Shown here in pieces: positions 5,879 through 64,000 of a stretch of DNA of 64,000 bases. A program made the translations under genes and the position numbers. Position 1 is the first letter of the stretch. Each line of letters starts with the position of its first letter. The DNA is from Candidatus Sungiibacteriota bacterium (GTDB lineage Bacteria > Patescibacteriota > Minisyncoccia > Sungbacterales > JACQCQ01), in the NCBI GenBank assembly GCA_016201505.1, contig JACQCQ010000002.1, positions 144,903 through 208,902 on the forward strand. The letters are read 5' to 3'. The notes beneath the pieces are model-generated. The model had not been told where the DNA came from and did not search any database. It worked only from the letters and a program-made list of their open reading frames with translations.

Positions 5879-5951
5879 AATTTTTTCTCTAAAGCCTCAA
5901 CCATATCCTCGGGGTGCCCTGCCCTGATGGATTAAATCTTGTGCCCCGCCA

Positions 5952-7001
5952 TCAGGCGAGGCTCGCCGCGCCGGGCGGCATAGATTGGCAGGCTTCGATG
6001 ATGGGACCTAAATCACCTTCCATGATTTGCTCTATATTGTGAAAATTCTGATTGATACGGTGATCGGTGATGCGATCTTGGGAAAAATTGTAGGTCCGGA
6101 TTTTCTCTGAACGATCGGCGGTGCCGATTTGGGATCTCCGCTCGGCAGCCTGCTTTTTCTCTTCGGCCTCACGCTGGATGTCGTAAATTCGGGCACGCAG
6201 AATTGACATGGCCCGTTCCCGATTTTTTAACTGCGACCTGCCCTCTTGCGAAGTCACGACAAAGCCGGTCGGCAGATGCGTAATACGAACAGCCGTTTCT
6301 ACTTTGTTCACGTTTTGTCCACCGGGGCCAGACGAACGATAAAACTCAACCTTGATGTCTGGGGGCTTAATTTCCACATCAATATCTTTGACTTTGGGGA
6401 GAACTGCAACCGAAGCCGTAGAAGTGTGTATCCGTTCCTGTTTTTCAGTTGCCGGAATCCGCTGAATGCGATGGACCCCCGACTCATAGCGCAGCAACTT
6501 ATACGCATCTTCGCCGTCAACTTCAAAGACTACTTCTTTAAATCCGCCGAGCTCTGACTCTGAAGATGAAATTAATTCAACCTGCCATTTTTTTGATTCT
6601 GCAAATCTGGTGTACATGCTAAAAAGCTCTCTCGCAAAAAGTGAGGCTTCTGTCCCGCCGGCTCCGGCGCGAATTTCAATAATAACGTCAGTCGGCAGAA
6701 TCTCTACCACTTTTTCATTTTCTAGATTGTTGAGCTCCTTTTTTAATTTCTCTGCTTCTGCCGTAAGTCGCGCTATATCTTCTGTCGCCATGTCGGCGAA
6801 TATAGGGTCGGCAGCTAATTTTTTTGACTCGGCTAACTCATGGCTGACTTTTTCAAGTTTTTCGAGAACGGCCTGAATTTTTCGTAATTTTTGCAGCCTC
6901 GCGCCGGCTATTTTGGCATCCGTGCGACTTGAAAGAAACCCGGGATCACTAAGTTTATCAGTCAGCTCGTTTATTTCTTTTTCTATTTCTTGTGAGGTCA
7001 T
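5952..7001 (-). CDS. prfA: peptide chain release factor 1
   Basis: 349 aa. GGQ motif (SGPGGQNVNK) and PAT tripeptide (RIQRIPATE), i.e. RF1 not RF2. Single uninterrupted frame. Confidence 0.85.
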   Translation of the reverse strand: MTSQEIEKEINELTDKLSDPGFLSSRTDAKIAGARLQKLRKIQAVLEKLEKVSHELAESKKLAADPIFADMATEDIARLTAEAEKLKKELNNLENEKVVEILPTDVIIEIRAGAGGTEASLFARELFSMYTRFAESKKWQVELISSSESELGGFKEVVFEVDGEDAYKLLRYESGVHRIQRIPATEKQERIHTSTASVAVLPKVKDIDVEIKPPDIKVEFYRSSGPGGQNVNKVETAVRITHLPTGFVVTSQEGRSQLKNRERAMSILRARIYDIQREAEEKKQAAERRSQIGTADRSEKIRTYNFSQDRITDHRINQNFHNIEQIMEGDLGPIIEACQSMPPGAASLA

Positions 7002-15148: not shown

Positions 15149-15443
15149 GTTTAACCCCAGCACCCGGGGCGCGACCGTACTCGACGCGCGTGCTACGCGG
15201 TGATGCACCATTTATCCATGGGCTCATGCCCATGGCTTGTTGGGTGTGTGGGTTTACGAATGACTATGAATGAGATATAGTTTTTCAGATAGGCAGGGCT
15301 CCCATCGTCCCTCATCCGCACAAAAGCTATTTGAGCTTCCCTCCTTCAGTAAACTTTCGGAGGGCAAAGCGGACAATATTCCGCCTGCCCGCTGGAGCTT
15401 TAGCGAAAGAGGAAAGCTCCGAAGTCATCCGGAGCGTAGGAGA

Positions 15444-15490
15444 GGCTCCCATCGTCTAGTGGCCTAGGATACTTGGTTCTTTCACCCGCC
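15444..15490 (+). pseudogene. 5'-half fragment of a tRNA-Glu(TTC)-like gene (acceptor, D-arm and CTTTCAC anticodon loop; no T-arm), abutting the intact tRNA-Glu
   Basis: GCTCCCATCGTCTAGTGGCCTAGGATA... closely matches the 5' half of the adjacent tRNA-Glu but cannot fold into a cloverleaf. A further 12-nt copy, GCTCCCATCGTC, lies at 15298-15309. Confidence 0.4.
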
Positions 15491-15509
15491 TAAATTTTGT
15501 CTGCAATCT

Positions 15510-15584
15510 GCTCCTATCGTCTAGCCTGGTCTAGGACGCCAGGTTCTCATCCTGGTAACCCGGGTTCGAATCCCGGTAGGAGCG
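15510..15584 (+). tRNA. tRNA-Glu (anticodon CTC)
   Basis: Acceptor GCTCCTA/TAGGAGC, anticodon loop TTCTCAT, T-arm GGTTCGAATCC. No encoded CCA. Confidence 0.8.
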
Positions 15585-15694
15585 CAGACAAAATTTGAGC
15601 GGGCAAGTCCAAGAAATTAAGGGTTCGCTTGTCCGTCCGTAGTTTTTATCGCAGGCGGGAATCCCACTTGGAGCGCAAGAGTTTTCGCGTGTCT

Positions 15695-15732
15695 CCTATA
15701 AATACGATAGACTAGTCTATCGTACTTATAGG
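15695..15732. repeat. 38-bp palindrome copy 1 (CCTATAAATACGATAGACTAGTCTATCGTACTTATAGG), 51 bp upstream of the peptidase gene
   Basis: Near-perfect dyad (one mismatch). The CGATAGACTAGTCTATCG core is identical to the copies at 24962 and 54090. Confidence 0.7.
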
Positions 15733-15782
15733 AATGACGCCTTTGTGCTGGGCGATTTTGCCTCGTTCGATATACTGAATCT

Positions 15783-16871
15783 ATGAAAACTTTTCTGGTT
15801 CTTTCTTTGGCGGTGTCTTTTCTGGTGGCTGCACCGGTAAAAGCGGCCTATCACTTTTCTGACTTTCGCGGCCGGCCGCCGATTCATGTAAACGGCAGCT
15901 CATCAAAAACACCAAAAGGCATAACGCCGGATCAAATAAAAAAGATTTATAGGTTACCTGCTGGCGGGGGGAGCGGAACGATTGCAATTATCGGCGCCTA
16001 TGATGACCCGTCAATCGAGGCGGACGTAAACGATTTCAGCCGCCAATTTAATCTGCCTGTCTGCACGACGGCCAACGACTGCTTTGAGAAACACAAAATG
16101 AGCCCGTCAATGAAATCGGATAGCGGCTGGGCAATGGAGATAACGCTTGACGCAGAATGGGCGCATGCCGTTGCCCCGCGAGCTAAAATTCTCTTAGTTG
16201 AGGCGACAACGCCGAGCGGCGCGAATTTATTAAAAGCCGTGGACTATGCGGCGAGCCGCAAAGATGCTGTGTCTATTTCCATGAGCTGGGGTGGCGCGGA
16301 ATTTCCGGAAGAGACAACACTTGATTCGCATTTTATCTCTAAATCGGGCGCGGTGTTTTTTGCTTCCTCGGGCGATAATGGCGCCGGTGCTTCATGGCCA
16401 GCCGCGTCCCCAAATGTCATCGGCGTTGGCGGAACATCGCTTCAATTAAAATCAGATGGGACTCTGTCAAAAGAAACCGCCTGGAGCGGGTCGGGCGGCG
16501 GGGTGAGCGCCTACGAGAAACAACCCGACTATCAAACGAACTACTCAATCCCGCGAGCCAAGGGCCTGCGCGCCATCCCCGACGTCGCCTATGACGCTGA
16601 TCCCATCTCGGGCTTTCCGATTATTCGGCTGGGCACTTGGCGAGAAGTCGGCGGGACGTCAGCCGGTGCGCCGCAATGGGCCGCCATCGCCGCACTCTCC
16701 AATGGATTTTCAATTCAAGATCTCTACAAAGATAAAGCCGCCTCGAACTCTGCAAAGTTTTTCCGCGACATCACCAGCGGCTCCAATGGTTCATGCGCGT
16801 ATTACTGCGACGCCCGGAGGCATTATGACTACGTTACAGGGCTCGGAACGCCGCTAACCACGAATTTTTGA
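15783..16871 (+). CDS. secreted serine peptidase, S53 (sedolisin/kumamolisin)-like within the S8/S53 clan
   Basis: Signal peptide MKTFLVLSLAVSFLVAAPVKA. GGTSAGAPQWAAIAAL catalytic-Ser motif of the S53 type, and a conserved Asp region (AIIGAYDD). Confidence 0.55.
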   Translation: MKTFLVLSLAVSFLVAAPVKAAYHFSDFRGRPPIHVNGSSSKTPKGITPDQIKKIYRLPAGGGSGTIAIIGAYDDPSIEADVNDFSRQFNLPVCTTANDCFEKHKMSPSMKSDSGWAMEITLDAEWAHAVAPRAKILLVEATTPSGANLLKAVDYAASRKDAVSISMSWGGAEFPEETTLDSHFISKSGAVFFASSGDNGAGASWPAASPNVIGVGGTSLQLKSDGTLSKETAWSGSGGGVSAYEKQPDYQTNYSIPRAKGLRAIPDVAYDADPISGFPIIRLGTWREVGGTSAGAPQWAAIAALSNGFSIQDLYKDKAASNSAKFFRDITSGSNGSCAYYCDARRHYDYVTGLGTPLTTNF

Positions 16872-16920: not shown

Positions 16921-16968
16921 GAACTAGTACATTTTATCCGATCGGATAAAATGTACTAGTTCTTTTTC
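16921..16968 (+). terminator. 42-bp perfect palindrome (GAACTAGTACATTTTATCCGATCGGATAAAATGTACTAGTTC) followed by a T-run. Likely an intrinsic terminator
   Basis: 21-bp perfect stem followed by TTTTTC, 50 bp after the peptidase stop. Confidence 0.6.
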
Positions 16969-21717: not shown

Positions 21718-22530
21718 TTATCTAATTTCTTTATATATATTTGAAATTGCAAAAAATTGAGGCCGGTATGTTTCAGGAGTGACCAAAAATTGTAAGTCGG
21801 TGGGATGCCCCACAAATACGTTCCATAACGGCTCAAAGTATCCGTGGAACCAGTCTTTGCGCGGGACAAGTTTTTTTAACTCGGGTATCGAGGAGTAGTT
21901 CGGATTTCGTTCAATTTCTATCATAGCCGGATTTTGACCCGCTAGGAAGCGATAACACCCGCCATGTAATTTCTTGTACTTTGAATAATCAGATTGAAAA
22001 AGATCAGCGACACAGTTGGCTTCGATTAAGGGCTCTGATTCGGTATTGATTGTAATGTGGCCGAACCCCGGGGGTACTAAAATCTTCTCACCTGGTCCCG
22101 CCTCCACCAAATACGCTTCTTCAATCTCGTCATGATTTCCCCCAGCCTTTTGAATCAGCCAATGGCCGCGGCCGGAAAGGACCTCGTATATTTCCGGATA
22201 CCCTATACCATTTTTATCAACTTGATGATAGTGCCCGGCGGTACGGAAGAATTCGCGCTCGTCATTTGGCAGACGATATGATCCCGACTCAATCAGCGTG
22301 ATGTCATACCGCATAGTCTGTGAAAACGATAATTCTTTATCCATCGGTTCGATGTCGCGCCAGACGCGATATACGGGATCTATATCCGAGCTGATCGCAT
22401 CGACAAAGAAGGGAGCCAGATCAACAACTTTTTTTTCAGTCATCTCGCCGACTCTTAATTCGTGGGGTATAACGAGCGTCCCAGCCTCAAAGCCAAGAGG
22501 CAGTCCGCTGATAGTTTTTAAGTCAGGCAT
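21718..22530 (-). CDS. cupin-type (archaeal-like) glucose-6-phosphate isomerase
   Basis: 270 aa. TAGHYH...PEIYEVLSGRGHWLIQ...VPPGFGH metal-ligand and cupin pattern as in the Pyrococcus-type PGI. Confidence 0.5.
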   Translation of the reverse strand: MPDLKTISGLPLGFEAGTLVIPHELRVGEMTEKKVVDLAPFFVDAISSDIDPVYRVWRDIEPMDKELSFSQTMRYDITLIESGSYRLPNDEREFFRTAGHYHQVDKNGIGYPEIYEVLSGRGHWLIQKAGGNHDEIEEAYLVEAGPGEKILVPPGFGHITINTESEPLIEANCVADLFQSDYSKYKKLHGGCYRFLAGQNPAMIEIERNPNYSSIPELKKLVPRKDWFHGYFEPLWNVFVGHPTDLQFLVTPETYRPQFFAISNIYKEIR

Positions 22531-24295
22531 GAAATACTCTTTTTGTTTTTATATACCAGGAGTTAAATGTATCAAAACGCTCCGCCGGAATAATAAAAGT
22601 TTGAATGTCGAGGCCCTTTACGTTTGATCGGTAGATATAGGTATAGGTTGGCGAATAGAGGAATATCGTAGGGAAGTCTCTATGAATGGCTTCTTGAAAT
22701 TTTTGATAATCAGCCTCAATTCTTGATTGATCGGTCGATCGGCGGGCGTCTTCAAGCAGATTGTCTACTAGGGCCGAATGATAAAGCGCAATGTTAAGTC
22801 CCGGATCTTTGATTTGAGAAGAATGCCAGAAGGCAAACGGATCAGGATCGTGCCCCAGGATCTCCCCGAAGAGGAGCGCATCGTAATGCCGAGGCCGGAT
22901 GACGTTTGACTCTAGGTCGTCAATGGGCATGGCATTAATTTCCGCGTCAACACCGATGGCTTTCCAGTATTCCTTGATGGCATTGGCCGAGTTTTTGAGG
23001 TCACTCCAATCCGATGTGGCGAGCGTAATTTTTAGCGGAATGGGTTTGTCCTTCTTTTTGGCAGCCTTCTTTTCTAAGAGACCGTCACCGTTTAGATCTT
23101 TCCAGCCGGCTTTAGCCAGGATGGCTCGCGCCGCATTCGGATCGTAGGCGGTCTTATTAATTTGACCATTGTATCCGAACGTTCCCGGCGGAATGGGAGA
23201 CTCGATCGGCAATGCCCCGCCGCCCAATACTTTTTTTATCAACTCATCCTTTGGAATGGCTAAGGCCAGCGCTTGGCGAATCAATTTATCTTTTAGGACG
23301 GGGTTTGAATCGTTTAAAAATATGGCAAATATGCGCGGCATTTTTACGGCTGGAGCGTTTCCTCCGAGCGACTTAAAGAAATCAACCTTCTTTTGCGAGA
23401 CGACGCTGACGCCGTCAATATTTTTTGCCTCAAAAGCCTGAACTAACTGATCAGGAGAATCGTAGAAAGTAAACTCAACAGTCTCGATGTAAGGGCCCGC
23501 GCGATAATAATCCCGATTGCGCTCGAGCACATACTTGGTGACAGCGCCCGCCGCATTTCGACTCATGCTTTTAAATGTATATGGTCCGCTGCCAGTCGGT
23601 TTTAAATTAGCTTCCGAGAGTGACGCCGCTTCTGCCGAGACATTGTCCCAAATATGCCGGGGAATAATGGCCAGCGCCAGGTTTTGTAAAAATGGCGAGT
23701 AGGGTTGTTTTAAAACAAATCTGACGGAATAATCTCCCAGTCTCTCGATCGTAACACCTTGCCAGTTCGGGCGCAGAGAACTTTTATAGCTTGGGTCTTG
23801 AATTGTTTTTACCGTAAACACGACATCATCGGCAGTCAGCGGAGTTCCGTCATGCCATTTAGCATTCTTTTTTAAAGCGATGGTATAGGATTTGCCATCA
23901 GCCGAAATTGAATAATTTTCCGCTAAATCGGGCGTTAAGTTTCCCTTGCCGTCATAGACAAAAAGTTTAGAAAATATCAGTTCAACTAAATCTCGGTCAG
24001 TATCATTTGAGGAAAGAAAGAGGGGGTTAACGCGTTCTGGCGGCCGAACTTCTCCTTCGCGAAATATGCCGCCGATGGCCGGAACAGGGTGCGTTAAATG
24101 CAAAAAGACGAGAGTCCCCGAAGTCACCCCGCTGATAACTGTTAAGGCAATACAGAAGAAAAATAAAGCGCGTTCGGTGCGGGAAAAAATATGCGGGACG
24201 TAGAGCCAGTCCCGAAACGATAAGGCTTTCCATGGATTTTGCGGGAACCCCGGCCTTGGACTCTGGTTTATTCCCGACGTACCTTTTTCTGTCAT
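22523..24295 (-). CDS. ABC-transporter family-5 (oligopeptide/nickel-type) substrate-binding protein, membrane-anchored, with no adjacent permease or ATPase
   Basis: Start chosen at MTEKG; the ORF track extends to 24346. N-terminal TM anchor, then a roughly 520-aa SBP_bac_5-like domain. Confidence 0.6.
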   Translation of the reverse strand: MTEKGTSGINQSPRPGFPQNPWKALSFRDWLYVPHIFSRTERALFFFCIALTVISGVTSGTLVFLHLTHPVPAIGGIFREGEVRPPERVNPLFLSSNDTDRDLVELIFSKLFVYDGKGNLTPDLAENYSISADGKSYTIALKKNAKWHDGTPLTADDVVFTVKTIQDPSYKSSLRPNWQGVTIERLGDYSVRFVLKQPYSPFLQNLALAIIPRHIWDNVSAEAASLSEANLKPTGSGPYTFKSMSRNAAGAVTKYVLERNRDYYRAGPYIETVEFTFYDSPDQLVQAFEAKNIDGVSVVSQKKVDFFKSLGGNAPAVKMPRIFAIFLNDSNPVLKDKLIRQALALAIPKDELIKKVLGGGALPIESPIPPGTFGYNGQINKTAYDPNAARAILAKAGWKDLNGDGLLEKKAAKKKDKPIPLKITLATSDWSDLKNSANAIKEYWKAIGVDAEINAMPIDDLESNVIRPRHYDALLFGEILGHDPDPFAFWHSSQIKDPGLNIALYHSALVDNLLEDARRSTDQSRIEADYQKFQEAIHRDFPTIFLYSPTYTYIYRSNVKGLDIQTFIIPAERFDTFNSWYIKTKRVFHA

Positions 24296-24302
24296 TCTAG
24301 AT

Positions 24303-24518
24303 CTAGAGAATGATTGAGGCGACCGCCGAGGCAAGCAGCAAGACAATCAAAACAATAGTCACGTAAAATATTACTTTTTCGACGCCGCGTTTCGTGCGGT
24401 AGACATTGCCTTCGCCGCCGAAGGTAGCGGATAATCCCGTTCCGCGCTGCTGCAGCAAAATAGAGGCGGCGAGGAGTACTGAAACAATGATCTGAAATAT
24501 AGAAATTATAGCCTTCAT
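24303..24518 (-). CDS. secG: preprotein translocase subunit SecG
   Basis: 71 aa, two TM helices, LLQQRGTGLSATFGG signature. Confidence 0.7.
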   Translation of the reverse strand: MKAIISIFQIIVSVLLAASILLQQRGTGLSATFGGEGNVYRTKRGVEKVIFYVTIVLIVLLLASAVASIIL

Positions 24519-24522
24519 GATT

Positions 24523-24936
24523 TTAGAGAACCGTATTAATTATGCCGACAATCAGTGTGCTTCCAACCCAGGCGGTAAGGCCATCGATTGAGATTTCCGG
24601 AATGAGCCAGGCGAGGACCCAAAGAATTATAGCGTTAATTATGATATTGAAAAGGCCGAAGCTGATGATAACGAGCGGGAAGCTGATGATTTTGAGAACC
24701 GGCCGCAGGATGGTGTTTAAGACGGCGAGCACGAAGCCGGCCACAACGAGCGTCTGGTAATAGAGGAGGATGTTAAGCCCGGCGCTAAAGGTATGGCTTA
24801 GGATATGAAATCCCGAGAGAAGATAGGCCGAAAACCAGAGGGCCCCGGCGTTTATGGCGACTTTTACGAGGAAGCGCAGGATAAACATGCAAAACAGATG
24901 ATACCGAAAAATAAGCCCTCCGTCAAAAGGTACCAC
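24523..24936 (-). CDS. small four-TM membrane protein (phage-holin-family-4/DUF360-like)
   Basis: Four predicted TM helices. Weak resemblance to the PF04020 family. Confidence 0.35.
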   Translation of the reverse strand: MVPFDGGLIFRYHLFCMFILRFLVKVAINAGALWFSAYLLSGFHILSHTFSAGLNILLYYQTLVVAGFVLAVLNTILRPVLKIISFPLVIISFGLFNIIINAIILWVLAWLIPEISIDGLTAWVGSTLIVGIINTVL

Positions 24937-24961: not shown

Positions 24962-24997
24962 CTATAAATCCGATAGACTAGTCTATCGGATTTATAG
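24962..24997. repeat. 36-bp palindrome copy 2 (CTATAAATCCGATAGACTAGTCTATCGGATTTATAG), perfect, 26 bp upstream of the minus-strand membrane-protein gene
   Basis: Perfect dyad, same core as copies 1 and 3. Confidence 0.7.
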
Positions 24998-25170
24998 AGA
25001 CTATGCCTAATAGTTACTTTTACCCCTTTCTTTAATAATTTTGGCTAGCAAGAAAACACCCCTGCCGCTTTGGCGGGTTACATGCTTTTTCTTTTTCTCT
25101 CTCCGCTCCGATTTAAATTTCCGTTTTTCCTTCACGTATTCAGTATATTCGAGACTGTCTGGACTTCATA

Positions 25171-25206
25171 CTTACCTATACCTCCCTATAGGTCGGTATA
25201 GGTAAG
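25171..25206 (-). terminator. hairpin CTTACCTATACC-N12-GGTATAGGTAAG immediately after the uvrC stop (no U-tract)
   Basis: 12-bp perfect stem abutting the stop codon. Confidence 0.4.
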
Positions 25207-26520
25207 TTAGTGCAAAGTCAGGAAAGACTTCCTGCGGAGTACCGAGTGATACGACTTGGCAAACCGGTGGGACTCATCGCGGATGCGCTGCAGGAGATGC
25301 ATGACGGACATAGGCAACGTTCGTAACGGAACCGATTCCCTGCGATTTGACAAGTACCAGAGGTCTTGATTCTGACCCGCGCCAGACGGGGCGCGTGAGA
25401 AAAATCGGCGCGGCGGTTTTGAGAGCGCGCTCACATGAATTTTTCTGAATTGCTTTTGGTTGAGCAGTGGGAGAATGGCATTTAATTGTCCCTTTCCGCC
25501 GTCAATGACGATTAAATCCGGCAACTCCCATTCATTATGATAGAGCCGACGTGAAATGACCTCGCGATGCGAGGCCACATCATTGGCCCCCGCAACTGTT
25601 TTGATCTTGAATTTACGGTATTGTGATTTGTCCGGCCGCCCGTCGTAGAAGACAACCATTGACCCTGCAGATGAAGCGCCCGAAATATTTGAAATGTCGT
25701 ATCCCTCGATGCGGCGTATGGGCTCCTTCGTATTTAAAAAAGTCTTCAAGACTCGCTCAATTTTAAAATATGGGGTTTCCGATCTCTTCTTTAAGGCAAT
25801 GCCGCGATGGCGATAAAATGATTCAAGCCCGAAAATTTGATTGCGCAGTTTAGCGGCCTTTTCGTACTCTTCATGTTTGGCTGCCGCCTTCATTTCTTTT
25901 TCAAGATCTCGCAATAAGTTATTTCGCTTGCCAGACAGAATGGAAAAAATGGAGTTAATATTTTTCTTGTATTCTTGTTTTTCCGTTTGAGTTGATTCCT
26001 GTTCTTTGATGCAACAGTATCCAGCGCATCGCCCAATCTGGGCGTTTACGCAAACTCCTCGATGCAGCTGTTTACAGGAACAGTAGGGGAAGGTGCCTCT
26101 AAGGAGACGCATGGCTTCGCGTAAGTAAGTTGCTTCAACAAATGGTCCAACCGCGGTTACGCCCGGCTCCGGCTGGTGCGTAAAGTAAAAGCGAGGGAAT
26201 TCGTCTTTCGTGACTGCTATGTATAAGTAGTTTTTATCATCCCGCATTAAGATGTTGAATTTAGGCAGATGCTTTTTAATGTTTTCAGATTCTAAAATCA
26301 ACGCCTCAATTTCAGATGCGGTTTTGATAAATTCAATCGAAGTTGCCTCCTGGATCAGTTGGCTAACTTTCCAGCCGCGTCCGCCGGCCGGTGGAATCTT
26401 AAAATAGGCAGAAACTCGCTTTTTTAAATTAGCGGCTTTCCCAACATACAGTGGCGTCTTCTTTCGCTTGAAAATATAGACGCCCGGATGAGTCGGTATC
26501 GTTTTCGGCTTTTTCAGCAT
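25207..26520 (-). CDS. uvrC: excinuclease ABC subunit C, short form lacking the C-terminal (HhH)2 domain
   Basis: 437 aa. N-terminal GIY-YIG (GVYIFKRKKTPLYVGKAANLKKR), a Cys cluster, and C-terminal IDGGKGQL. Confidence 0.7.
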   Translation of the reverse strand: MLKKPKTIPTHPGVYIFKRKKTPLYVGKAANLKKRVSAYFKIPPAGGRGWKVSQLIQEATSIEFIKTASEIEALILESENIKKHLPKFNILMRDDKNYLYIAVTKDEFPRFYFTHQPEPGVTAVGPFVEATYLREAMRLLRGTFPYCSCKQLHRGVCVNAQIGRCAGYCCIKEQESTQTEKQEYKKNINSIFSILSGKRNNLLRDLEKEMKAAAKHEEYEKAAKLRNQIFGLESFYRHRGIALKKRSETPYFKIERVLKTFLNTKEPIRRIEGYDISNISGASSAGSMVVFYDGRPDKSQYRKFKIKTVAGANDVASHREVISRRLYHNEWELPDLIVIDGGKGQLNAILPLLNQKQFRKIHVSALSKPPRRFFSRAPSGAGQNQDLWYLSNRRESVPLRTLPMSVMHLLQRIRDESHRFAKSYHSVLRRKSFLTLH

Positions 26521-30403: not shown

Positions 30404-30430
30404 TTAGCAGTCGATAAAGTTGAGTGCTAA
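30404..30430 (+). promoter_or_regulatory. CIRCE operator (TTAGCAGTC-N9-GAGTGCTAA), the HrcA binding site
   Basis: One mismatch from the TTAGCACTC-N9-GAGTGCTAA consensus, in the classical position downstream of the groES promoter. Confidence 0.8.
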
Positions 30431-30845: not shown

Positions 30846-32627
<1,782 letters not shown>

Positions 32628-40676: not shown

Positions 40677-40681
40677 ATAAA

Positions 40682-40714
40682 AAGAAGTCCCGACGTTGGC
40701 GGGACTTCTTTTTA
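40682..40714 (+). terminator. rho-independent terminator after rpoC (AGAAGTCCCG-ACGTTGG-CGGGACTTCT followed by a T-run)
   Basis: 10-bp stem followed by a T-run. Confidence 0.8.
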
Positions 40715-40799
40715 TGGACCGCTGCTGATTGACCGCGGAGGCTATTTTTGAGTCCTTTAAAAGATGATAGACTGGTAATTATCACGACCTGGCTGATCT

Positions 40800-43752: not shown

Positions 43753-43844
43753 TAATATAAATCAAATCGTCTACCGACTACAGACTACTGCACCGAAATC
43801 CAAAGCGCAGTAGTCAGTGGACGGTAGACTGTAGTCCAATAAAA
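43753..43844 (+). promoter_or_regulatory. structured leader element, recA copy
   Basis: AATAATATAAATCAAATCGTCTACCGACTACAGACTACTGCACCGAAATCCAAAGCGCAGTAGTCAGTGGACGGTAGACTGTAGTCCAATAAAA immediately 5' of the ATG. Perfect 9-bp central hairpin GACTACTGC/GCAGTAGTC. Confidence 0.55.
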
Positions 43845-50070: not shown

Positions 50071-50385
50071 ATGTACGCAGTCATCGAAACTGGCGGGAAG
50101 CAGTATCTCGTCAAAGAAAACCAGAAAATTCGCGTAGAAAAACTAGCCAGTGACGCGGGCATGATTCGCTTTCCGAAAGTACTGCTGGTGTTCGACGACA
50201 AAAAAATGGACCTCGGCGCGCCGATTATTTCAGAAGCCGCAGTTGAGGCTGAGGTCCTCCGGCAGGGCAGAAATAAAAAAATAATTGTTTTTAAATATCA
50301 TGCCAAAACTCGCTACCGCAAAAAGAAGGGGCATCGCCAGCCATTCACCGAGGTTCTGATTAGAAAAATACTCCGAAAAAACTAA
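50071..50385 (+). CDS. rplU: 50S ribosomal protein L21
   Basis: MYAVIETGGKQY... signature. Confidence 0.85.
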   Translation: MYAVIETGGKQYLVKENQKIRVEKLASDAGMIRFPKVLLVFDDKKMDLGAPIISEAAVEAEVLRQGRNKKIIVFKYHAKTRYRKKKGHRQPFTEVLIRKILRKN

Positions 50386-50421
50386 AGACGAGGCTGTTCG
50401 AGCCTCGTCTTTAGTTTTTTA
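50384..50421. terminator. bidirectional terminator between the convergent rplU and recR genes (AAAGACGAGGC-TGTTCGA-GCCTCGTCTTT followed by a T-run)
   Basis: 11-bp perfect stem followed by a T-run. Confidence 0.8.
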
Positions 50422-52538: not shown

Positions 52539-53975
52539 TCACTGGCTCATTTCCTGTCGTTTGGGAATAAGCACCGGCCCGTCTGGGGTGTCATCTACTT
52601 CCCAATTAAGACCTGACATCTGCCGGCGCAGAGCATCAGCCTGTTTCCAATTCTTAATCTGTCGCGCCTTTTCCCGTTTATTGGAAAGCAGCCTAACCAT
52701 ATGCGGGGGATTGGGTATTTTTGCGCTTTTTAGTTGCAGACCAAGCACTCGATCAAAGTCGATCAATAGTCGATATTTAGATTTTGGGTTAAGACGCTGG
52801 CTGGAGATGACAAACCATATGATTGAAATTGCAATTGGAGTATTTAAATCATTTTCAAGAGCCGCGATAAATTTATTTTTTAACTCTCGCGCTATAGATG
52901 CATCCCGCAACGTATTCAGTTTTTTATTTTTTGATTGGGCTTTCAAGCGAGCCGTGTGGCTTAATAACTTCCGATAGGCATTTTGAGCGGATTTGAGCCC
53001 TTCCCAACTAAAATCAAGGATTGAGCGATAATGCGCGAGCGATACAAAATAGCGATAGGCTAACGGATCGAACCCGCGATTTCGCAACGTCTCGATCGTT
53101 ACCATATCTCCGGCGGATTTTGCCATCTTTTGATTTGAAAGATTCAAAAACTCGCCATGCAGCCAGTAGCGCGCCAGAGGCCTGTCAAAGGCGGCTTCGG
53201 ATTGGGCGATTTCATTCGTGTGATGCGTGCCGATATGATCAACGCCCCCCGTATGAATATCGAAGGGCTGTCCCAGGTAGTGGGTCGAGATAGCCGAGCA
53301 CTCGATATGCCAGCCGGGAAATCCATCACCCCAGGGAGACGGCCAATGCAAGATATGATTTTTAAATCTGCCGACAATTTTAAACCACAGCGCAAAATCT
53401 TCCGGGTTTCGCTTACTTGAATCAACCGCAACTCCTTCTCGGGCGCCTGTTTGCTGGTCTTCCAGTTTTTTGCCGGAAAGCTTGGTATAATCTTTAAATT
53501 TCAAAACAGCGAAATAGACCGCCCCGGCGGTATCATAGGCATAGCCCTTTTTAACCAGCCGCTCGATCATCTTGATTTGGCCTTTAATATGCTTTGTCGC
53601 CGGCGAGAGAACGGATGGTTTTTTGATATTGAGTGCCTCAAGATCTCGAACAAAGGCTTTGGTATAAAACTTGGCTACGGAAAAGACGGATTTTGCCTCG
53701 CGTCGTGCGCCCCTCTCCAGCTTATCTTCGCCCGAGTCGTTATCATCCGTCAGGTGTCCGACATCCGTAATATTCATCACCTGCTTCACCCGGTAACCTA
53801 AATACTCGAGCGTCCGGCGCAGAATATCTTCAAATATATACGTGCGCATGTTGCCGATATGCGCGTAGTGGTAGACTGTCGGCCCGCAGGTGTATAAGCC
53901 CACGCGCCTTGGCTTGATGGACCGAAAAATCTCTTTTTTCTTCGTCAGCGTGTTATAGAGTTGCAGTGGCATCAA
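52539..53975 (-). CDS. cysS: cysteinyl-tRNA synthetase
   Basis: HIGN, KMAKS and zinc-ligand Cys motifs. Confidence 0.9.
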   Translation of the reverse strand: MMPLQLYNTLTKKKEIFRSIKPRRVGLYTCGPTVYHYAHIGNMRTYIFEDILRRTLEYLGYRVKQVMNITDVGHLTDDNDSGEDKLERGARREAKSVFSVAKFYTKAFVRDLEALNIKKPSVLSPATKHIKGQIKMIERLVKKGYAYDTAGAVYFAVLKFKDYTKLSGKKLEDQQTGAREGVAVDSSKRNPEDFALWFKIVGRFKNHILHWPSPWGDGFPGWHIECSAISTHYLGQPFDIHTGGVDHIGTHHTNEIAQSEAAFDRPLARYWLHGEFLNLSNQKMAKSAGDMVTIETLRNRGFDPLAYRYFVSLAHYRSILDFSWEGLKSAQNAYRKLLSHTARLKAQSKNKKLNTLRDASIARELKNKFIAALENDLNTPIAISIIWFVISSQRLNPKSKYRLLIDFDRVLGLQLKSAKIPNPPHMVRLLSNKREKARQIKNWKQADALRRQMSGLNWEVDDTPDGPVLIPKRQEMSQ

Positions 53976-54089
53976 AAATCAGACCGGGAATATTGGGAAG
54001 CACTTTATATTTCAATACTAGCACAAGCTGTTTATACCGTTAGATGCCCCATCTTGCTTTCCCCGCACCTCCTCAAATGTCGCTCTTTT

Positions 54090-54127
54090 CCTATAAGTTC
54101 GATAGACTAGTCTATCGGACTTATAGG
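54090..54127. repeat. 38-bp palindrome copy 3 (CCTATAAGTTCGATAGACTAGTCTATCGGACTTATAGG), 18 bp upstream of the hrcA CIRCE
   Basis: Dyad with one mismatch, same core as copies 1 and 2. Confidence 0.7.
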
Positions 54128-54144
54128 TTTTTCGGGCTCCACTC

Positions 54145-54171
54145 TTAGCGCTCTTGACGTGAGACTGCTAA
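54145..54171 (+). promoter_or_regulatory. CIRCE-like operator (TTAGCGCTC-N9-GACTGCTAA) with an embedded TTGACG -35 for hrcA
   Basis: One mismatch per arm versus the consensus. Positioned at the hrcA-grpE-dnaK operon promoter. Confidence 0.65.
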
Positions 54172-54193
54172 CAGTGATAATCTATTTCCTGTA

Positions 54194-54913
54194 ATGAATC
54201 CTGTCACAAAGCGCCAAGAAGATTTGCTGTTTGCCGCAGTTAGCGAGCACATCCGCACCGGTGAGGCCGTCTCTTCAGATGACCTGCGCACTCGGTATCG
54301 CCTGTCATACAGTCCAGCGACCATCAGAAATGAGCTTTTAGCCCTTTCCGAACTCGGCTTCTTAGATCAGCCGCATACTTCGGCTGGTCGTATTCCGACT
54401 GACAGAGGCTATCGCTGGTACGCAGACAAGATTTCAGCCGCGTCGCCTCTTAAAAAAGACGAGGTCACAGCCATCAGACAGATTTCCGAAGAATACACGG
54501 ATTTAAACGAGTTCTTCCGCCTTTCAACTGAAATGCTGGCTCGCATGGTGCAAGCCCTGGTTGTCGGCGGCGTGTCCGAAAATTCAATGGAACCTTTCTA
54601 TAAAAGCGGATTCGGCCAAATCCTTTCCGAGCCCGAGTTTACGGAATCAATATCGCGCAACAGCTTCGGCGAGCTGGTTGACTCAATTGATGCCGATGTT
54701 AGGTCGCTGATCGAAGCTCGTGATTTTAAAATTCCGCACATATTTATTGGCGGAGAAAATCCGATCGAAGAAGCCCGCCCCTACAGCATGATTATAAAAA
54801 CCATCGAGCATGGAGATGATCGGGGAGTCCTGGCTATCATTGGCGCTAAGCGGATGCGATATGATAAAGGTCTATCGTTACTTTCAGCGCTTGACTCAAT
54901 TTTTGATGAGTAA
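54194..54913 (+). CDS. hrcA: heat-inducible transcription repressor HrcA (short form)
   Basis: 239 aa. N-terminal wHTH (TIRNELLALSELGFLDQPHTSAGRIPT). Shorter than the canonical roughly 340-aa HrcA. Confidence 0.75.
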   Translation: MNPVTKRQEDLLFAAVSEHIRTGEAVSSDDLRTRYRLSYSPATIRNELLALSELGFLDQPHTSAGRIPTDRGYRWYADKISAASPLKKDEVTAIRQISEEYTDLNEFFRLSTEMLARMVQALVVGGVSENSMEPFYKSGFGQILSEPEFTESISRNSFGELVDSIDADVRSLIEARDFKIPHIFIGGENPIEEARPYSMIIKTIEHGDDRGVLAIIGAKRMRYDKGLSLLSALDSIFDE

Positions 54914-55561: not shown

Positions 55562-55570
55562 TTAAAACAG

Positions 55571-55637
55571 GCTACAGCTGACGGACTACAGACCACAGGA
55601 CGGTAGTCAGTAGACGGTAGACTGTAGTTGCAAAAAA
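55571..55637 (+). promoter_or_regulatory. structured leader element, dnaK copy
   Basis: GCTACAGCTGACGGACTACAGACCACAGGACGGTAGTCAGTAGACGGTAGACTGTAGTTGCAAAAAA immediately 5' of the ATG. Same word set as the groEL and recA copies. Confidence 0.5.
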
Positions 55638-59655: not shown

Positions 59656-60240
59656 ATGGCGCGAGTCATTGTGGAGAGAGAGGATCGAATGCGAAAGGGC
59701 CAGATTGCGGAGGAGATCCTGCGGGTTTTAAGCCATCGGCCTATTTTTTTGTCTTCACCAAAGGCGAGCGCCGCCAGCCAGATACTTCTATCTAAACTTG
59801 AAGCCAAGGGGATTGGCAGACGACGCAGAAATAACGTAAAAATTGCCATTGATAGGCTAAGGCGACAGCGCTGCATCGAGTATAGCCATGAAAGCGATAA
59901 GCACCTATTACGTTTAACAGATTCCGGTGAACGTCGACTCTTACGCTATCAGATCTTTCATTTGAAGCTGGCAGTTTCGCGCTGGGATAAAATCTGGAGA
60001 ATTATCCTGTTTGATATCCCGGAAGAAAAGAAAATGGCTCGAGATTCCATAACCAGGAAGTTAAAAAATATGGGATTTTATCAGTTTCAACGGAGCGTCT
60101 TCGTACACTACCTTGATTGCCAGCAGGAGGTTAATCTCATTACCGATTACTTTAACGTACGAGAATACTTCACACTCATAGAAGCTTTTGAGCTCGGAAA
60201 TCAAGAATATAAGGCCAAAAGCTTCTTCGAGTTAAGCTAA
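59656..60240 (+). CDS. PaaX-like putative transcriptional regulator (N-terminal wHTH-like region plus a Cas2-like fold domain)
   Basis: WDKIWRIILFDIPEEKKMARDSITRKLKNMGFYQFQRSVF matches the W-D-x-x-W-LLL...G(F/Y)...QxSVF pattern shared by PaaX-family regulators and Cas2. No CRISPR array nearby. Confidence 0.4.
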   Translation: MARVIVEREDRMRKGQIAEEILRVLSHRPIFLSSPKASAASQILLSKLEAKGIGRRRRNNVKIAIDRLRRQRCIEYSHESDKHLLRLTDSGERRLLRYQIFHLKLAVSRWDKIWRIILFDIPEEKKMARDSITRKLKNMGFYQFQRSVFVHYLDCQQEVNLITDYFNVREYFTLIEAFELGNQEYKAKSFFELS

Positions 60241-60641
60241 GATACGTATCAATTTAATCTAACAAGATTTAAAGCGTATCAATCTAGTAATACTAAAAAT
60301 TTATGTTAAACAGCAATTTCGTTATTCTGTTATAACGATAGAACGTATTACTTAATTAACCATAAGGAATTTTTAGTATAGTTATGAAAAATCTAATCAA
60401 TAATTTATAAAACAATATAAAATCCTGATTTTTGTCTGAACAAAGCCTGCCGAACTATCAGGGGTCAACTAAATGGGCAAAGCAGAGTTACCGGACCAGC
60501 CAGAGCCGGCATTTTTTTAAAATGGGGGATCGAAAAATTTGAAAAATTAAAATTTTTACTATTCTTTCGTAACTTATCCACATAAAAGAATTGACGCAGA
60601 AGCAGTATCATAAAGATACGCTGACGTATCAAGATGGAGCT
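60241..60641. repeat. AT-rich (about 30% GC) spacer carrying repeated palindromic GATACGTATC(AA) / CGTATCAA motifs at 60241, 60277 and 60617-60638; further copies lie inside the downstream gene at 61023 and 60985
   Basis: Four occurrences of the 8-mer CGTATCAA within about 800 bp. A GATACG-CTG-ACGTATC dyad overlaps the start codon of the giant gene. Confidence 0.5.
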
Positions 60642-63600
60642 TAAATTAATTCGACTTCGAGAAGCCGCAAAAATTTCTGGAATTCACCAGGACTATTTAC
60701 GAGTTCTCATTAATCGAAAAAACTTAAGAGCAAAAAAAATCGGCCGAGATTGGTTTATTACGGCCCAAGATTTAACCGATTACCTCAAACAATCAAAAAA
60801 ACGATCAAATGGTATTCAGCTGCAAAAGGCTGAAAAAGTTAGCGTCACCCTTAAGCCAAGCCATAACCTAAAAATAAGGCGAAAATTATACCAGCCAGAG
60901 GCTACGCTTGTTCGCACGATACACGAGAACATTTTTTCAAACTTCAATCAGGCAAGGAATTATGAAAAAATAACTTCAGCAGAAAAAAGATACGATCTTT
61001 ACTTAAATCAGCCTAAATCTCGATACGTATCAAACTACAAGCCAATTTTTATATCAATTTCCGCGATTGTATTGGCTTTGGGGGGCTATTTTGCGGCATT
61101 GAATTTTGGCAGTGAGCTGATGCGGGCGGCTAATGAGTCAGGTATCAGGATCCGCAATTTAGCGAACTACCTAACACCGGAGATTACGCCGGCTCCAATT
61201 GGCCAAACGCGCTCACATGCCTATACCTCAATTCAGGAAGGTTCAAATGCGGACCTCGGCCGCGTGTTGCGTGGATTTAGTGAGCTTGGTGCGGGACAGG
61301 CAACTTCCGGATTCTCTAATTTAATTCAAATCGCAAGCCGCACGCCGTATGAGATATACCGGGGTATTCAAAACGGGATTTCCGGCGTGTCGGTAAGCCC
61401 GCAAGCATCCAACCAGCTCTCCGGGATTTTTAAAAGCATCCAGCCCTTCTTCTCCAATCTGCTGATTGGCTCAAATCTCCGCGAGACGGTAACAATTCCG
61501 TCTGATCTCGGCCTGATTCTTCCGCCCCAAGTCGCTTCAACGCCGACAACAACAAAAGTGTCAGTTCCTACCGGCGCATCTTCCGGCACCCAGATTGTCG
61601 CAAAACAAACAATCATCCAAAAGATCGTACCGGCCGACACCGCAAAAATTAAAGCGGAACTTTTAGCCTATATCAGCTCGCAAACGGCTGACTTTAAGAA
61701 CCAGCTTTTTAATCTCTCAAATAAAATCATCAGCCTCCAGGGAAATCTTGACAATACCACTCACGTCGCCGGGTCAACCTATCAAATGGTGAACTTAACG
61801 CAGCGAATAAATCAGCTCGACAGTTTGACAGTTACTGGCGGACTTTCGGTAACTTCCGGAAACCTTTCTGTCGCGGGAGGAATTTCTGCAGCAACCGCAT
61901 CATTTTCAAATTTGAGCGTTTCAAATTTAACCGTAACAAACTGCACCGGCTGCGGCGGCGGTTCCGGATCGCAAACTCCCTGGATTTCCAGCATCGAGGG
62001 CGCGGGATTTAATTTGGCCGACGTTGGCACGTTAACTGTTACGGTAATTAACGCGACCTCAACCTCCGCAACTTCAACATTTTCTACCGGCGGACTTGCC
62101 ATTGGCACCAGTCAATTTGTCATTCAGCAAACTTCAGGCCGCGTGGGCATCGGCACAACCTCGCCAGTTCAATTATTTTCTGTTGTCGGATCAGGATACT
62201 TGACCGGCGGACTCGGGGTTGGTGTCGCTACATCATCAGCCGGCGTCATCGAAACGACCGGTCAAATTCTGGTTGGCGGCCAATTAATTGTGCAAGGTGC
62301 CGCGACGTCAACCTTCACCGGCAACGGCATTAACGTGACGACAGGATGCGTCGCCATAAGCGGGACCTGTCTCGGATCAGGATCTGGCACCATTAATGCG
62401 GGAACAACAAATCGACTGGCGTACTATTCGGGCGCCTCCACCATCAGCTCGGCTAATTTTTTGGCTGTCGACGCGACAAATAATCTCTTCGGCATCGGTA
62501 CCTCTTCTCCCGCATCAGTTTTTTCACTGGCGTCAAACGGCCGCGTGGCTTCATCCACCCTGCCCAATGCTTCTTCAACCTCAATTTTTCTTTCTGGCGT
62601 AAACCTCCAATACGGCTCCTCATCCACCACCACCATTCCGAATTCATTGGTCAATGGCTGGAGTATTGCAACGTCATCCGATGTGGGGAGTTCACCCTTC
62701 CTCTCAATTGACACTTCGAACAATAGGATTGGTGCTTTCACCGTGGCACCGCAGACAGCTCTCGATATCAACGGGGGACTGCAAGCTCGGGGAGCATCAT
62801 CTACGATAGTCAACCTCTCAATCTGGAACGCCACGACGACCCTCTTGCTGGGGACTGGGGCAACGTCTACAATCTCGAACCTCTCCATCTGGAATGCCAC
62901 GACGACCCAACTGATTATTCCCGCATACTATGCCAGTGGCGCGGGGGGGACATTCGGCCACGGCACCTCGACTCCCGGATTCTTTGAGTCTTTTGCCTTA
63001 AATGGCGCCGCATCCTCAACACTGCCGAACGCCTCGTCAAGCTCGTTTTTCTTTTCGGGAATTAATCTGACCTATGGCTCCTCGTCAACCACGACGATTC
63101 CGGCGAACGTAAACGGCTTCTCGATCGCGACATCCTCTCAACTCGGCAGTTCGCCCCTTCTTTCGCTTAATGGATCAAGCGGAAATATCGGTGTCGGCTC
63201 AAGCTCGCCGGCGCAAACTTTCTCGGTCGCCGGCAACGCTTATGTCACCGGCGGATTCGGTATCGGCGCGACCAGAACTTCAAACGGACTTACGATTTCA
63301 TCCATCGCGAGCTGTACCGGCGGTCAAGCCCTGCAAACCGACAGTTTAGGATCAGTTTCCTGCGGAGCAGTTTCAAGCGGAGGCGCCTCGACAGGCGGCG
63401 GTTGGAGTTCAAGTGTTCCCAACCAAGCCGTAACGCTTGCTACCACAACTTTCTCGGTCGGTATTGGCGCAACTACGACGCCGTACGGAAAACTGACTGT
63501 GCTTTCGGGTGATGCCGCAACGACGACCTTGGTGCTTTATCCGGCCGCGTCTCAAACCGCCAATATCATTGATATCTACGACACTTCCGGCGCTCTATCC

Positions 63601-64000
63601 TCGGTATTAAATTCAAGCGGCAATCTGGGCCTTGCGAGCACAAGTCCCGCAACTAAACTTTCCGTCAACGGCTCGGGTTATTTTACCGGCGGCCTGGGAG
63701 TCGGAACACTGAATACTACCGCGGGCACAATTTCAGTGACTGGTCTGGCTACACTTTCGGGCGGAGTTCTCTCCAATGCGGCGTCCTCTACTATTTCCAA
63801 TCTCTCGATCTGGAACGCCACGACCACAAACCTCTTCATCCCCGCATTTAAGAATGGGCTGTCGTATCTGGCACTCGGCACCTCGACCCCAGCGGCCTAT
63901 GTTGCCTTTGCCTTAAATGGCGCGGTCGCCTCAAGCACCTTCCCGCAAGCCTCATCCACATCCATTTATCTTTCCGGCATCAATCTGACCTATGGCTCGT
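60634..64000 (+). CDS. giant repetitive Ser/Thr/Gly-rich putative cell-surface protein with N-terminal excisionase-type HTH and a single TM (partial; runs off the window end; absent from the supplied ORF track)
   Basis: Frame verified codon by codon from ATG 60634 to 63999 with no stop. N-terminus IRLREAAKISGIHQDYLRVLINRKNLRAKKIGRDWFITAQDLTDYL (HTH_17-like). TM YKPIFISISAIVLALGGYFAALNF. Then long degenerate repeats with recurring blocks (GIGTTSP..LxV.G.GY.TGGLGVG; NLSIWNATTT; LPNASSTSIFLSGVNLxYGSSSTTTIP). Confidence 0.6.
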   Translation, partial: MELKLIRLREAAKISGIHQDYLRVLINRKNLRAKKIGRDWFITAQDLTDYLKQSKKRSNGIQLQKAEKVSVTLKPSHNLKIRRKLYQPEATLVRTIHENIFSNFNQARNYEKITSAEKRYDLYLNQPKSRYVSNYKPIFISISAIVLALGGYFAALNFGSELMRAANESGIRIRNLANYLTPEITPAPIGQTRSHAYTSIQEGSNADLGRVLRGFSELGAGQATSGFSNLIQIASRTPYEIYRGIQNGISGVSVSPQASNQLSGIFKSIQPFFSNLLIGSNLRETVTIPSDLGLILPPQVASTPTTTKVSVPTGASSGTQIVAKQTIIQKIVPADTAKIKAELLAYISSQTADFKNQLFNLSNKIISLQGNLDNTTHVAGSTYQMVNLTQRINQLDSLTVTGGLSVTSGNLSVAGGISAATASFSNLSVSNLTVTNCTGCGGGSGSQTPWISSIEGAGFNLADVGTLTVTVINATSTSATSTFSTGGLAIGTSQFVIQQTSGRVGIGTTSPVQLFSVVGSGYLTGGLGVGVATSSAGVIETTGQILVGGQLIVQGAATSTFTGNGINVTTGCVAISGTCLGSGSGTINAGTTNRLAYYSGASTISSANFLAVDATNNLFGIGTSSPASVFSLASNGRVASSTLPNASSTSIFLSGVNLQYGSSSTTTIPNSLVNGWSIATSSDVGSSPFLSIDTSNNRIGAFTVAPQTALDINGGLQARGASSTIVNLSIWNATTTLLLGTGATSTISNLSIWNATTTQLIIPAYYASGAGGTFGHGTSTPGFFESFALNGAASSTLPNASSSSFFFSGINLTYGSSSTTTIPANVNGFSIATSSQLGSSPLLSLNGSSGNIGVGSSSPAQTFSVAGNAYVTGGFGIGATRTSNGLTISSIASCTGGQALQTDSLGSVSCGAVSSGGASTGGGWSSSVPNQAVTLATTTFSVGIGATTTPYGKLTVLSGDAATTTLVLYPAASQTANIIDIYDTSGALSSVLNSSGNLGLASTSPATKLSVNGSGYFTGGLGVGTLNTTAGTISVTGLATLSGGVLSNAASSTISNLSIWNATTTNLFIPAFKNGLSYLALGTSTPAAYVAFALNGAVASSTFPQASSTSIYLSGINLTYGS

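Follow-up and report, generated by a model that had tools for sequence, protein, structure and literature searches.

Genes and palindromes in the window

The window (the whole 64-kb stretch of DNA analysed here) contains three copies of a 36-38 bp palindrome, one ahead of a gene for an S53 family peptidase, one ahead of a minus-strand PF04020-secG-SBP_bac_5 gene string, and one ahead of a gene string that begins with hrcA. Re-reading of the window bears out the positions and sequences of the three copies as given in a preliminary description of this DNA, together with the identities that it assigned to the neighbouring gene products (S53 family peptidase, PF04020 four-TM protein, UvrC, CysS and HrcA). 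The palindromes and the genes downstream of them are as follows.

15695-15732, no strand: palindrome copy 1, CCTATAAATACGATAGACTAGTCTATCGTACTTATAGG
15783-16871, plus strand: S53 family peptidase gene with a signal peptide (NCBI name; homologues are listed with PF00082)
22523-24346, minus strand: gene for an SBP_bac_5 protein, after secG
24303-24518, minus strand: gene for SecG, following the PF04020 gene
24523-24888, minus strand: gene for a four-TM membrane protein of PF04020 (DUF360 / 'holin 4_2')
24962-24997, no strand: palindrome copy 2, CTATAAATCCGATAGACTAGTCTATCGGATTTATAG, a perfect 36-mer
54090-54127, no strand: palindrome copy 3, CCTATAAGTTCGATAGACTAGTCTATCGGACTTATAGG, with a T5 run after it
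54194-54913, plus strand: hrcA, first gene of a hrcA-grpE-dnaK-orf308-dnaJ-(PaaX-like) string

Copy 1 lies between a tRNA-Glu(CTC) gene, which ends 110 nt before it, and the ATG of the S53 peptidase gene, 50 nt after it. Copy 2 lies past the end of uvrC (minus strand) and before the PF04020 gene, with a gap of 25 bp to the GTG of the longest open reading frame and 73 bp to the likelier ATG at 24888. Copy 3 is in the gap from which cysS (minus) and hrcA (plus) diverge, 66 bp from the hrcA start codon, and a CIRCE element begins 17 nt past it. All three copies are thus intergenic in a window that is ~90% coding, an arrangement with a chance of ~0.001 under random placement. Both the S53 peptidase and HrcA match proteins of a Candidatus Sungbacteria (Parcubacteria, CPR) MAG at 100% identity.

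Independent assemblies show that the palindrome is not an assembly artefact, and they confirm sites 1 and 3. Copy 3 is spanned by an independent Logan contig (L003, run SRR12113409), and two contigs from two different runs (L023 and L024; window 15703/15705-16950) start inside copy 1 and end inside a 42-bp palindrome past the S53 peptidase gene. Since these de Bruijn contigs break inside two of the palindromes, short-read assemblies of this organism are fragmented by them.

Several other features lie close to sites 1 and 2. Upstream of the intact tRNA-Glu(CTC) gene (15510-15585) are tRNA-Glu-like 5' fragments (e.g. GGCTCCCATCGTCTAGTGGCCTAGGATACTTGGTTCTTTCACC) at 15290-15312 and 15443-15485, which may be remnants of integration or recombination at the tRNA gene; a convincing open reading frame is absent from 15149-15509. 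ARAGORN calls a 94-nt tRNA-Lys at 16505-16598 (minus) inside the S53 peptidase coding sequence, probably a false positive, since Rfam gives the call no support. The 42-bp palindrome just past the same gene (16921-16962; GAACTAGTACATTTTATCCGA/TCGGATAAAATGTACTAGTTC) is perfect, followed by T5 and terminator-like, with a weak sub-threshold Rfam match to SpF43 (31 bits; threshold 70). Its ends are GAACTAGTAC motifs, which we take to be like the half-sites of the E. coli trp operator, and its centre presumably resembles two inverted DnaA-box-like TTATCCGAT motifs. Immediately next to the uvrC stop codon (25170-25207) is an imperfect palindrome of 38 bp, ACTTACCTATACCTCCCTATAGGTCGGTATAGGTAAGT, which carries CCTATA/TATAGG motifs resembling the outer ends of the three-copy palindrome.

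Elsewhere in the window, groEL, recA and dnaK have in common a leader of ~75-85 nt immediately 5' of the ATG (30860-30944, 43765-43844 and 55565-55637). It consists of repeated GACTACAG / CTGTAGTC units, able to fold into a long, imperfect hairpin, with an A-rich stretch after them; it belongs to no Rfam family, and may be a common 5'-UTR element of highly expressed or stress genes. A single gene, PaaX-like wHTH plus Cas2-like (59656-60240), follows dnaJ and is conserved likewise in related contigs L012 and L018. A giant open reading frame with an N-terminal HTH_17 domain runs from 60634 past the window end (60634-64000); it has orthologues of 2355 aa (L018) and 4341 aa (L012).

Sequence, symmetry and copy number

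The 18-bp core CGATAGACTAGTCTATCG has exactly three matches in the window (at 15705, 24971 and 54100), and an exact-match search confirms that it is identical in all copies, as first described. The count stays at three with up to three mismatches allowed; chance expectation is 0.02 matches, and none of 100 shuffles reaches three. A 14-bp version of the core with three mismatches tolerated finds the same three sites only. The 18-nt arm CTATAARTNCGATAGACT has six matches against 0.16 expected, corresponding to both arms of the three copies, so that solo arms are absent. Degenerate additional copies are absent from the window as well.

The copies are dyads of 36-38 bp that have no spacer and no more than one arm mismatch apiece, located at position 8 in site 1, at the terminal base in site 2 and at position 10 in site 3. 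The dyad centre, ACTAGT, is itself palindromic and a free loop is absent. Between copies all 18 core positions are identical, and over 36 bp only two positions per arm vary. At these variable positions four of the six pairs are Watson-Crick despite differing bases (A-T, C-G, G-C; p ~0.04), and the remaining two are one G-T and one mismatch. The tetranucleotides CTAT/ATAG recur at 10-11 bp intervals over the 36 bp. When 200-bp stretches are aligned in both orientations the copies are alike only within CTATAA...TTATAG, and no larger repeat unit is found around the palindrome. Rfam 15 has no match at or near the three sites, either at the gathering threshold or at E<=1.

The tetranucleotide CTAG is strongly depleted throughout the window (59 occurrences, compared with 82-495 for other 4-bp palindromes), and one third of its sites fall in the ~10% of the DNA that is intergenic. 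Five of the eight ACTAGT sites in the window are located in intergenic palindromes.

Predicted promoters

A -10-like box stands 6-12 nt ahead of the ATG in many genes of the window that lack a Shine-Dalgarno sequence, and these genes therefore look leaderless. The predicted promoter elements of the three downstream units are organized in this manner.

15771-15776, plus strand: predicted -10 TATACT of the S53 peptidase gene, read from the sequence, 6 nt before the ATG at 15783
24898-24926, minus strand: predicted promoter TTGACG-17-TATCAT of the PF04020 gene, then 9 nt to the ATG
54154-54181, plus strand: predicted hrcA promoter TTGACG-16-GATAAT, then 12 nt to the ATG

The S53 peptidase promoter lacks a good -35, and its TATACT is not called by a consensus scan. 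For the PF04020 gene, the ATG at 24888 is likely to be the start rather than the GTG at 24936, because the TTGACG-17-TATCAT sequence sits 9 nt before this ATG; the Pfam match of the protein begins at residue 21 of the long open reading frame. The hrcA promoter is embedded in CIRCE (54145-54171), with the -35 in the 9-nt spacer and the -10 past the right arm, and the same layout is found in three relatives (L009, L011 and L012).

The distance from the dyad centre to the predicted -10 is 57.5 bp for copy 1, 76.5 bp for copy 2 and 67.5 bp for copy 3. These distances are in one helical phase within 2 bp, which we count as weak support for an operator since the estimated p is ~0.1; with the ATG as the reference point they are 69.5, 85.5 and 91.5 bp and are not in phase.

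The preliminary description had likened the TATAAAT/ATTTATA flanks of the palindrome to -10 hexamers on both strands and raised the possibility of a bidirectional promoter element. Neither suggestion stands up well: the flanks face inwards from both sides, have no -35 partner and are not called by the promoter scan, and better promoters are predicted 15-35 bp downstream of the palindrome, which makes a bidirectional promoter unlikely. A pairing of TAGACT as -35 with a flank as -10 was also considered and rejected, as the spacer is only 13 nt. The palindrome overlaps none of the predicted core promoters, and simple repression by occlusion is consequently not an obvious mechanism.

Distribution in other genomes

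The exact core was searched for in 185,579 species genomes (among which the source MAG is not included), JGI metagenomes and IMG/VR. It occurs in seven stretches elsewhere, two in species genomes and five in metagenomes, which does not exceed the expectation for a random 18-mer. It is absent from the viral contigs of IMG/VR and from other Sungbacteria among the species genomes. Three of the seven matches (L005-L007) look like terminators, one (L001) is before a TetR gene in a high-GC actinobacterium, and the others (L002/L004 and L008) have in common a 39-bp palindrome with the same core in unrelated gene surroundings. As only 4^9 different 18-bp palindromes are possible, we judge all seven to be coincidences among palindromes rather than homologues, and the apparent flank covariation with L004/L008 is discounted for this reason. 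Searches of the literature with the palindrome sequence return cloning primers only, and BLAST of the 38-mer against plasmids and phages returns nothing useful.

The palindrome is absent upstream of hrcA in all three distinct relatives retrieved (five loci, L009/L010, L011 and L012/L013, with two locus pairs identical; 54-64% HrcA identity), all of which keep CIRCE. It is likewise absent upstream of the S53 peptidase gene in all three relatives retrieved (L014-L017), where the gene order differs. Two of the hrcA relatives have corA between cysS and hrcA (L009 3836-4747 and L012 8908-9819); the gene is missing here, and copy 3 occupies the cysS-hrcA gap (53975-54194) where these relatives hold corA. 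By these comparisons the three-copy palindrome is lineage-specific. Absence from close relatives had been named at the outset as an outcome that would count against an operator; its absence from every hrcA and S53 locus fetched weakens that reading and stops short of refuting it, because the relatives are distant (54-76% protein identity) and the collections contain no close one.

Long palindromes in related Sungbacteria and candidate binding proteins

Perfect intergenic palindromes without a spacer abound in contigs of related Sungbacteria. Four groups of related loci have a YerC/YecD TrpR-like gene (PF01371) with palindromes of ~24-34 bp on its flanks, most of them perfect and all sharing the core ATACT-N4-AGTAT; L011, L018/L019 and L020-L022 show this arrangement.

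L011 6035-6070 and 6540-6580: palindromes associated with the TrpR-like gene
L018 9741-9774, 9963-9996 and 10414-10445: palindromes associated with the TrpR-like gene
L020 ~5940-5965 and 6390-6419: palindromes associated with the TrpR-like gene
L012 13348-13379: ATACT-N4-AGTAT palindrome after dnaK

One of the TrpR-associated palindromes ends 4 nt before the start codon. Their cores are identical within a genome and their flanks vary yet stay symmetric, both arms changing together, with a second TACT-like half-site 8 bp further out. They probably constitute the autoregulatory operator of the TrpR-like gene. A second type, TTTCA-N8-GCTATAGC-N8-TGAAA, is centred on GCTATAGC; in L012 and L018 such palindromes stand on both sides of the PaaX-like gene and ahead of the giant open reading frame.

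L012 7247, 16684 and 18021: GCTATAGC-centred palindromes
L018 1639 and 2361: GCTATAGC-centred palindromes
L020 3021-3066: GCTATAGC-centred palindrome

The copy in L020 has outer TCCTATAA...TTATAGGA ends like those of the window element, with an inner segment of 14 bp compared with 24 bp in the window element.

These palindromes accompany regulator genes, so long near-identical palindromic operators seem normal in the lineage, and this precedent weakens the argument that an operator would not be as well conserved as the window element. They name no binder here, since the TrpR-type and PaaX-type motifs are absent from the window. The TrpR-like regulator was rejected as the binder because the palindromes of the relatives have a different core and the window has no ATACT-N4-AGTAT sites beyond chance; a search for homologues of the TrpR-like protein brought up none in the source MAG, and by synteny its gene would lie past the 3' end of the window. 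The PaaX-like regulator was rejected because the places in the window that correspond to those of the relatives' palindromes carry neither the GCTATAGC motif nor the three-copy palindrome. Regulator genes in the neighbourhood of the copies are limited to hrcA, which has its own CIRCE, and the PaaX-like gene 5.5 kb downstream. MraZ, an HTH_25 protein, the PaaX-like protein and the giant HTH_17 protein are all encoded in the window, and none of their genes adjoins a site.

Comparison with known operators

One known system for comparison is CIRCE, the HrcA operator, likewise a long inverted repeat, of which several almost identical copies precede stress genes. However, its sequence is unrelated, and it has a 9-bp non-palindromic spacer where the palindrome has none. 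The pattern TTAGCACTC-N9-GAGTGCTAA matches the window only at 30404-30430 (before groES) and 54145-54171 (hrcA) and does not match the palindromes, and the three-copy palindrome is absent from the groES CIRCE promoter at 30404. CIRCE also overlaps the promoter and is kept in all relatives, whereas the palindrome is upstream of the promoter and unconserved.

The TrpR-associated palindromes of the same clade are similar in being 24-34 bp long, intergenic and promoter-proximal, with identical cores between copies and symmetric variable flanks. They differ in core (ATACT-N4-AGTAT, compared with GACTAGTC in the window element) and in hugging the regulator gene itself, whose likely promoter they overlap; they are themselves putative operators.

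Ribbon-helix-helix and controller proteins use operators built from short boxes, such as the TAGA subsites of Arc, the AGACGTCT boxes of MetJ and the GACT-N3-AGTC of the C-box. The window core contains TAGA...TCTA, AGAC..GTCT and GACT/AGTC, a resemblance that we treat as a lead only, and the overall length of ~35 bp would suit two dimers, but the half-site spacing of the core matches none of these operators, and a protein of this type was not identified here.

Proposed operators of a symmetric regulator

The best single explanation of the three palindromes is that they are operators of one symmetric DNA-binding regulator encoded elsewhere in the genome, to which we give a rough probability of 0.4. 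The preliminary description had proposed the operator of a dimeric regulator, and its grounds (the dyad and the intergenic, promoter-proximal positions) hold, with the regulator itself remaining putative. From the existence, symmetry, copy number and intergenic location of the palindromes and their placement with respect to predicted promoters, all read directly from the window, we infer the binding of a protein, the regulon and the direction of effect.

Each of the three intergenic copies precedes a unit for which a promoter of its own is predicted, and the perfect dyad with its palindromic centre ACTAGT fits symmetric protein recognition. Copy 3 is between divergent genes, where a terminator or 3' UTR element makes no sense. 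Solo arms, degenerate copies, copies within genes and a transposase are all unseen in the window, and the four groups of clade loci with palindromes at a regulator gene provide a precedent. Several observations point the other way. A cognate regulator was not found in the window; a sequence shared in full over 18 bp and almost in full over 36 bp carries far more information than a regulator needs in a ~1 Mb genome; none of the orthologous hrcA and S53 loci retrieved has the element, and its core is missing from other Sungbacteria among the species genomes; and it does not overlap a predicted core promoter. The promoters and start sites used here are predictions, and the view is limited to 64 kb.

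As operators, the palindromes would be bound at the central CGATAGACTAGTCTATCG dyad by a dimer or a dimer of dimers, whose contacts would fall on one face of the helix because CTAT/ATAG recur every 10-11 bp. The target units would be the S53 peptidase gene, the string encoding the PF04020 protein, SecG and a peptide-binding protein, and hrcA-grpE-dnaK-dnaJ, i.e. three separately promoted and apparently leaderless units with sites ~57-77 bp upstream of the predicted -10 boxes. An upstream activator or co-regulator touching RNA polymerase, or a roadblock to read-in transcription, would be more plausible at this distance than an occluding repressor.

A broader form of this proposal, in which an as yet unrecognised, lineage-specific CPR global regulator joins the chaperone operon, the SecG/membrane/peptide-uptake operon and the S53 peptidase (described as highly conserved and secreted) in an envelope/proteostasis regulon, is unlikely. 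The upstream position of the sites would be of the activator type, and control of the chaperone operon would be added to that by HrcA/CIRCE.

Alternative explanations

The most serious rival is that the palindromes are copies of a small lineage-specific REP/MITE-like repeat with no dedicated regulatory role, which would spread through recombination or through the action of a hairpin-recognising transposase or recombinase and land in tolerated intergenic DNA. We regard this as somewhat doubtful. It had been offered from the start as an alternative, and it retains force from the near-identity of the copies and from their absence at orthologous loci, and loses force from the lack of a GTAG motif and the low density. 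The 18/18 identity of the core stands against the degeneracy of true operators in the same window, where the two CIRCE elements differ from each other at several positions, and is more typical of recent copying. Pairing at four of the six variable arm positions is as expected if a hairpin matters. The restriction of the element to this lineage, with no copy at the orthologous loci of relatives or in other species genomes, fits a repeat as well, as do signs of local rearrangement at two of the sites (the missing corA, and the degenerate tRNA-Glu fragments upstream of site 1) and the presence in related genomes of other multi-copy perfect palindromes with covarying flanks (e.g. L021 65-104 and 4665-4708).

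REP elements associated with RAYT are imperfect palindromes of 20-40 bp with a conserved 5' GTAG, present in tens to hundreds of extragenic copies that are often clustered, and they usually accumulate between convergent genes; MITEs have terminal inverted repeats around an internal segment and target-site duplications at their flanks. The window element resembles both classes in being ~35-40 bp, palindromic, extragenic, species-specific, multi-copy and near-identical. Unlike REPs it is a perfect palindrome with a palindromic centre instead of a free loop, has no GTAG in or beside it, occurs only three times per 64 kb without clustering and never between convergent genes, and no RAYT/IS200-like or other transposase gene was noticed in the window. 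Unlike MITEs it has no internal segment framed by terminal inverted repeats, and the flank alignments reveal neither direct flank repeats (target-site duplications) nor a longer element around it.

Action at the RNA level, with the hairpin terminating or insulating transcription that enters from the upstream gene or serving as a processing or stability site, is improbable. Each copy folds into a hairpin of 16-18 bp on either strand (-20 to -25 kcal/mol; z = -6 to -9), copies 1 and 2 come after genes that run in the same direction (tRNA-Glu and uvrC), copy 3 has TTTTT behind it and is called terminator-like, and the perfect palindromes at 16921-16962, 40677-40715 and 50376-50420 are clear cases of terminators in the window. 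However, an intrinsic terminator comes after a gene and consists of a G+C-rich stem with a U-tract behind it, and the three copies depart from this pattern, with a T-run at copy 3 only and no U-tract on either strand at copies 1 and 2. The upstream genes already have terminator-like hairpins of their own, with T-runs, before the palindrome, and at copy 3 there is no co-directional upstream gene to terminate. The predicted promoters are downstream of the palindromes, which would therefore not be in 5' UTRs. The single arm mismatch becomes a G-U pair on the minus strand for site 1 but on the plus strand for site 3, so the two favour opposite strands; Rfam has no match, and a terminator does not need base-exact conservation over 18 bp.

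A role as chromosome-organisation or recombination sites (a parS-like centromere or targets of a site-specific recombinase), to which a few identical and perfectly symmetric palindromes across tens of kb might point, is very improbable, as the element has no likeness to dif or to the parS consensus TGTTNCACGTGAAACA, the window has no parB or recombinase gene, and the element is intergenic and not conserved in relatives, whereas parS sites mostly lie inside genes and are conserved.

Significance

To our knowledge almost nothing is known of how CPR/Patescibacteria control gene expression, with genomes of ~1 Mb and very few regulators. Operators and palindromic repeats are both well-known kinds of element, and either result would be incremental and not very surprising. 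If the palindromes belong to a REP-like repeat, they would exemplify small, mobile palindromic DNA from a CPR genome and would in practice cause assembly breaks. If they are operators, three target promoters are named (those of the chaperones, of secretion and peptide uptake, and of a secreted protease), and a 36-bp bait is available for pull-down of the regulator from a metagenome-derived protein set; were the global-regulator proposal true, the regulon would be among the first defined in Parcubacteria. The main value of the three palindromes would be as a concrete handle on regulation in a CPR bacterium.
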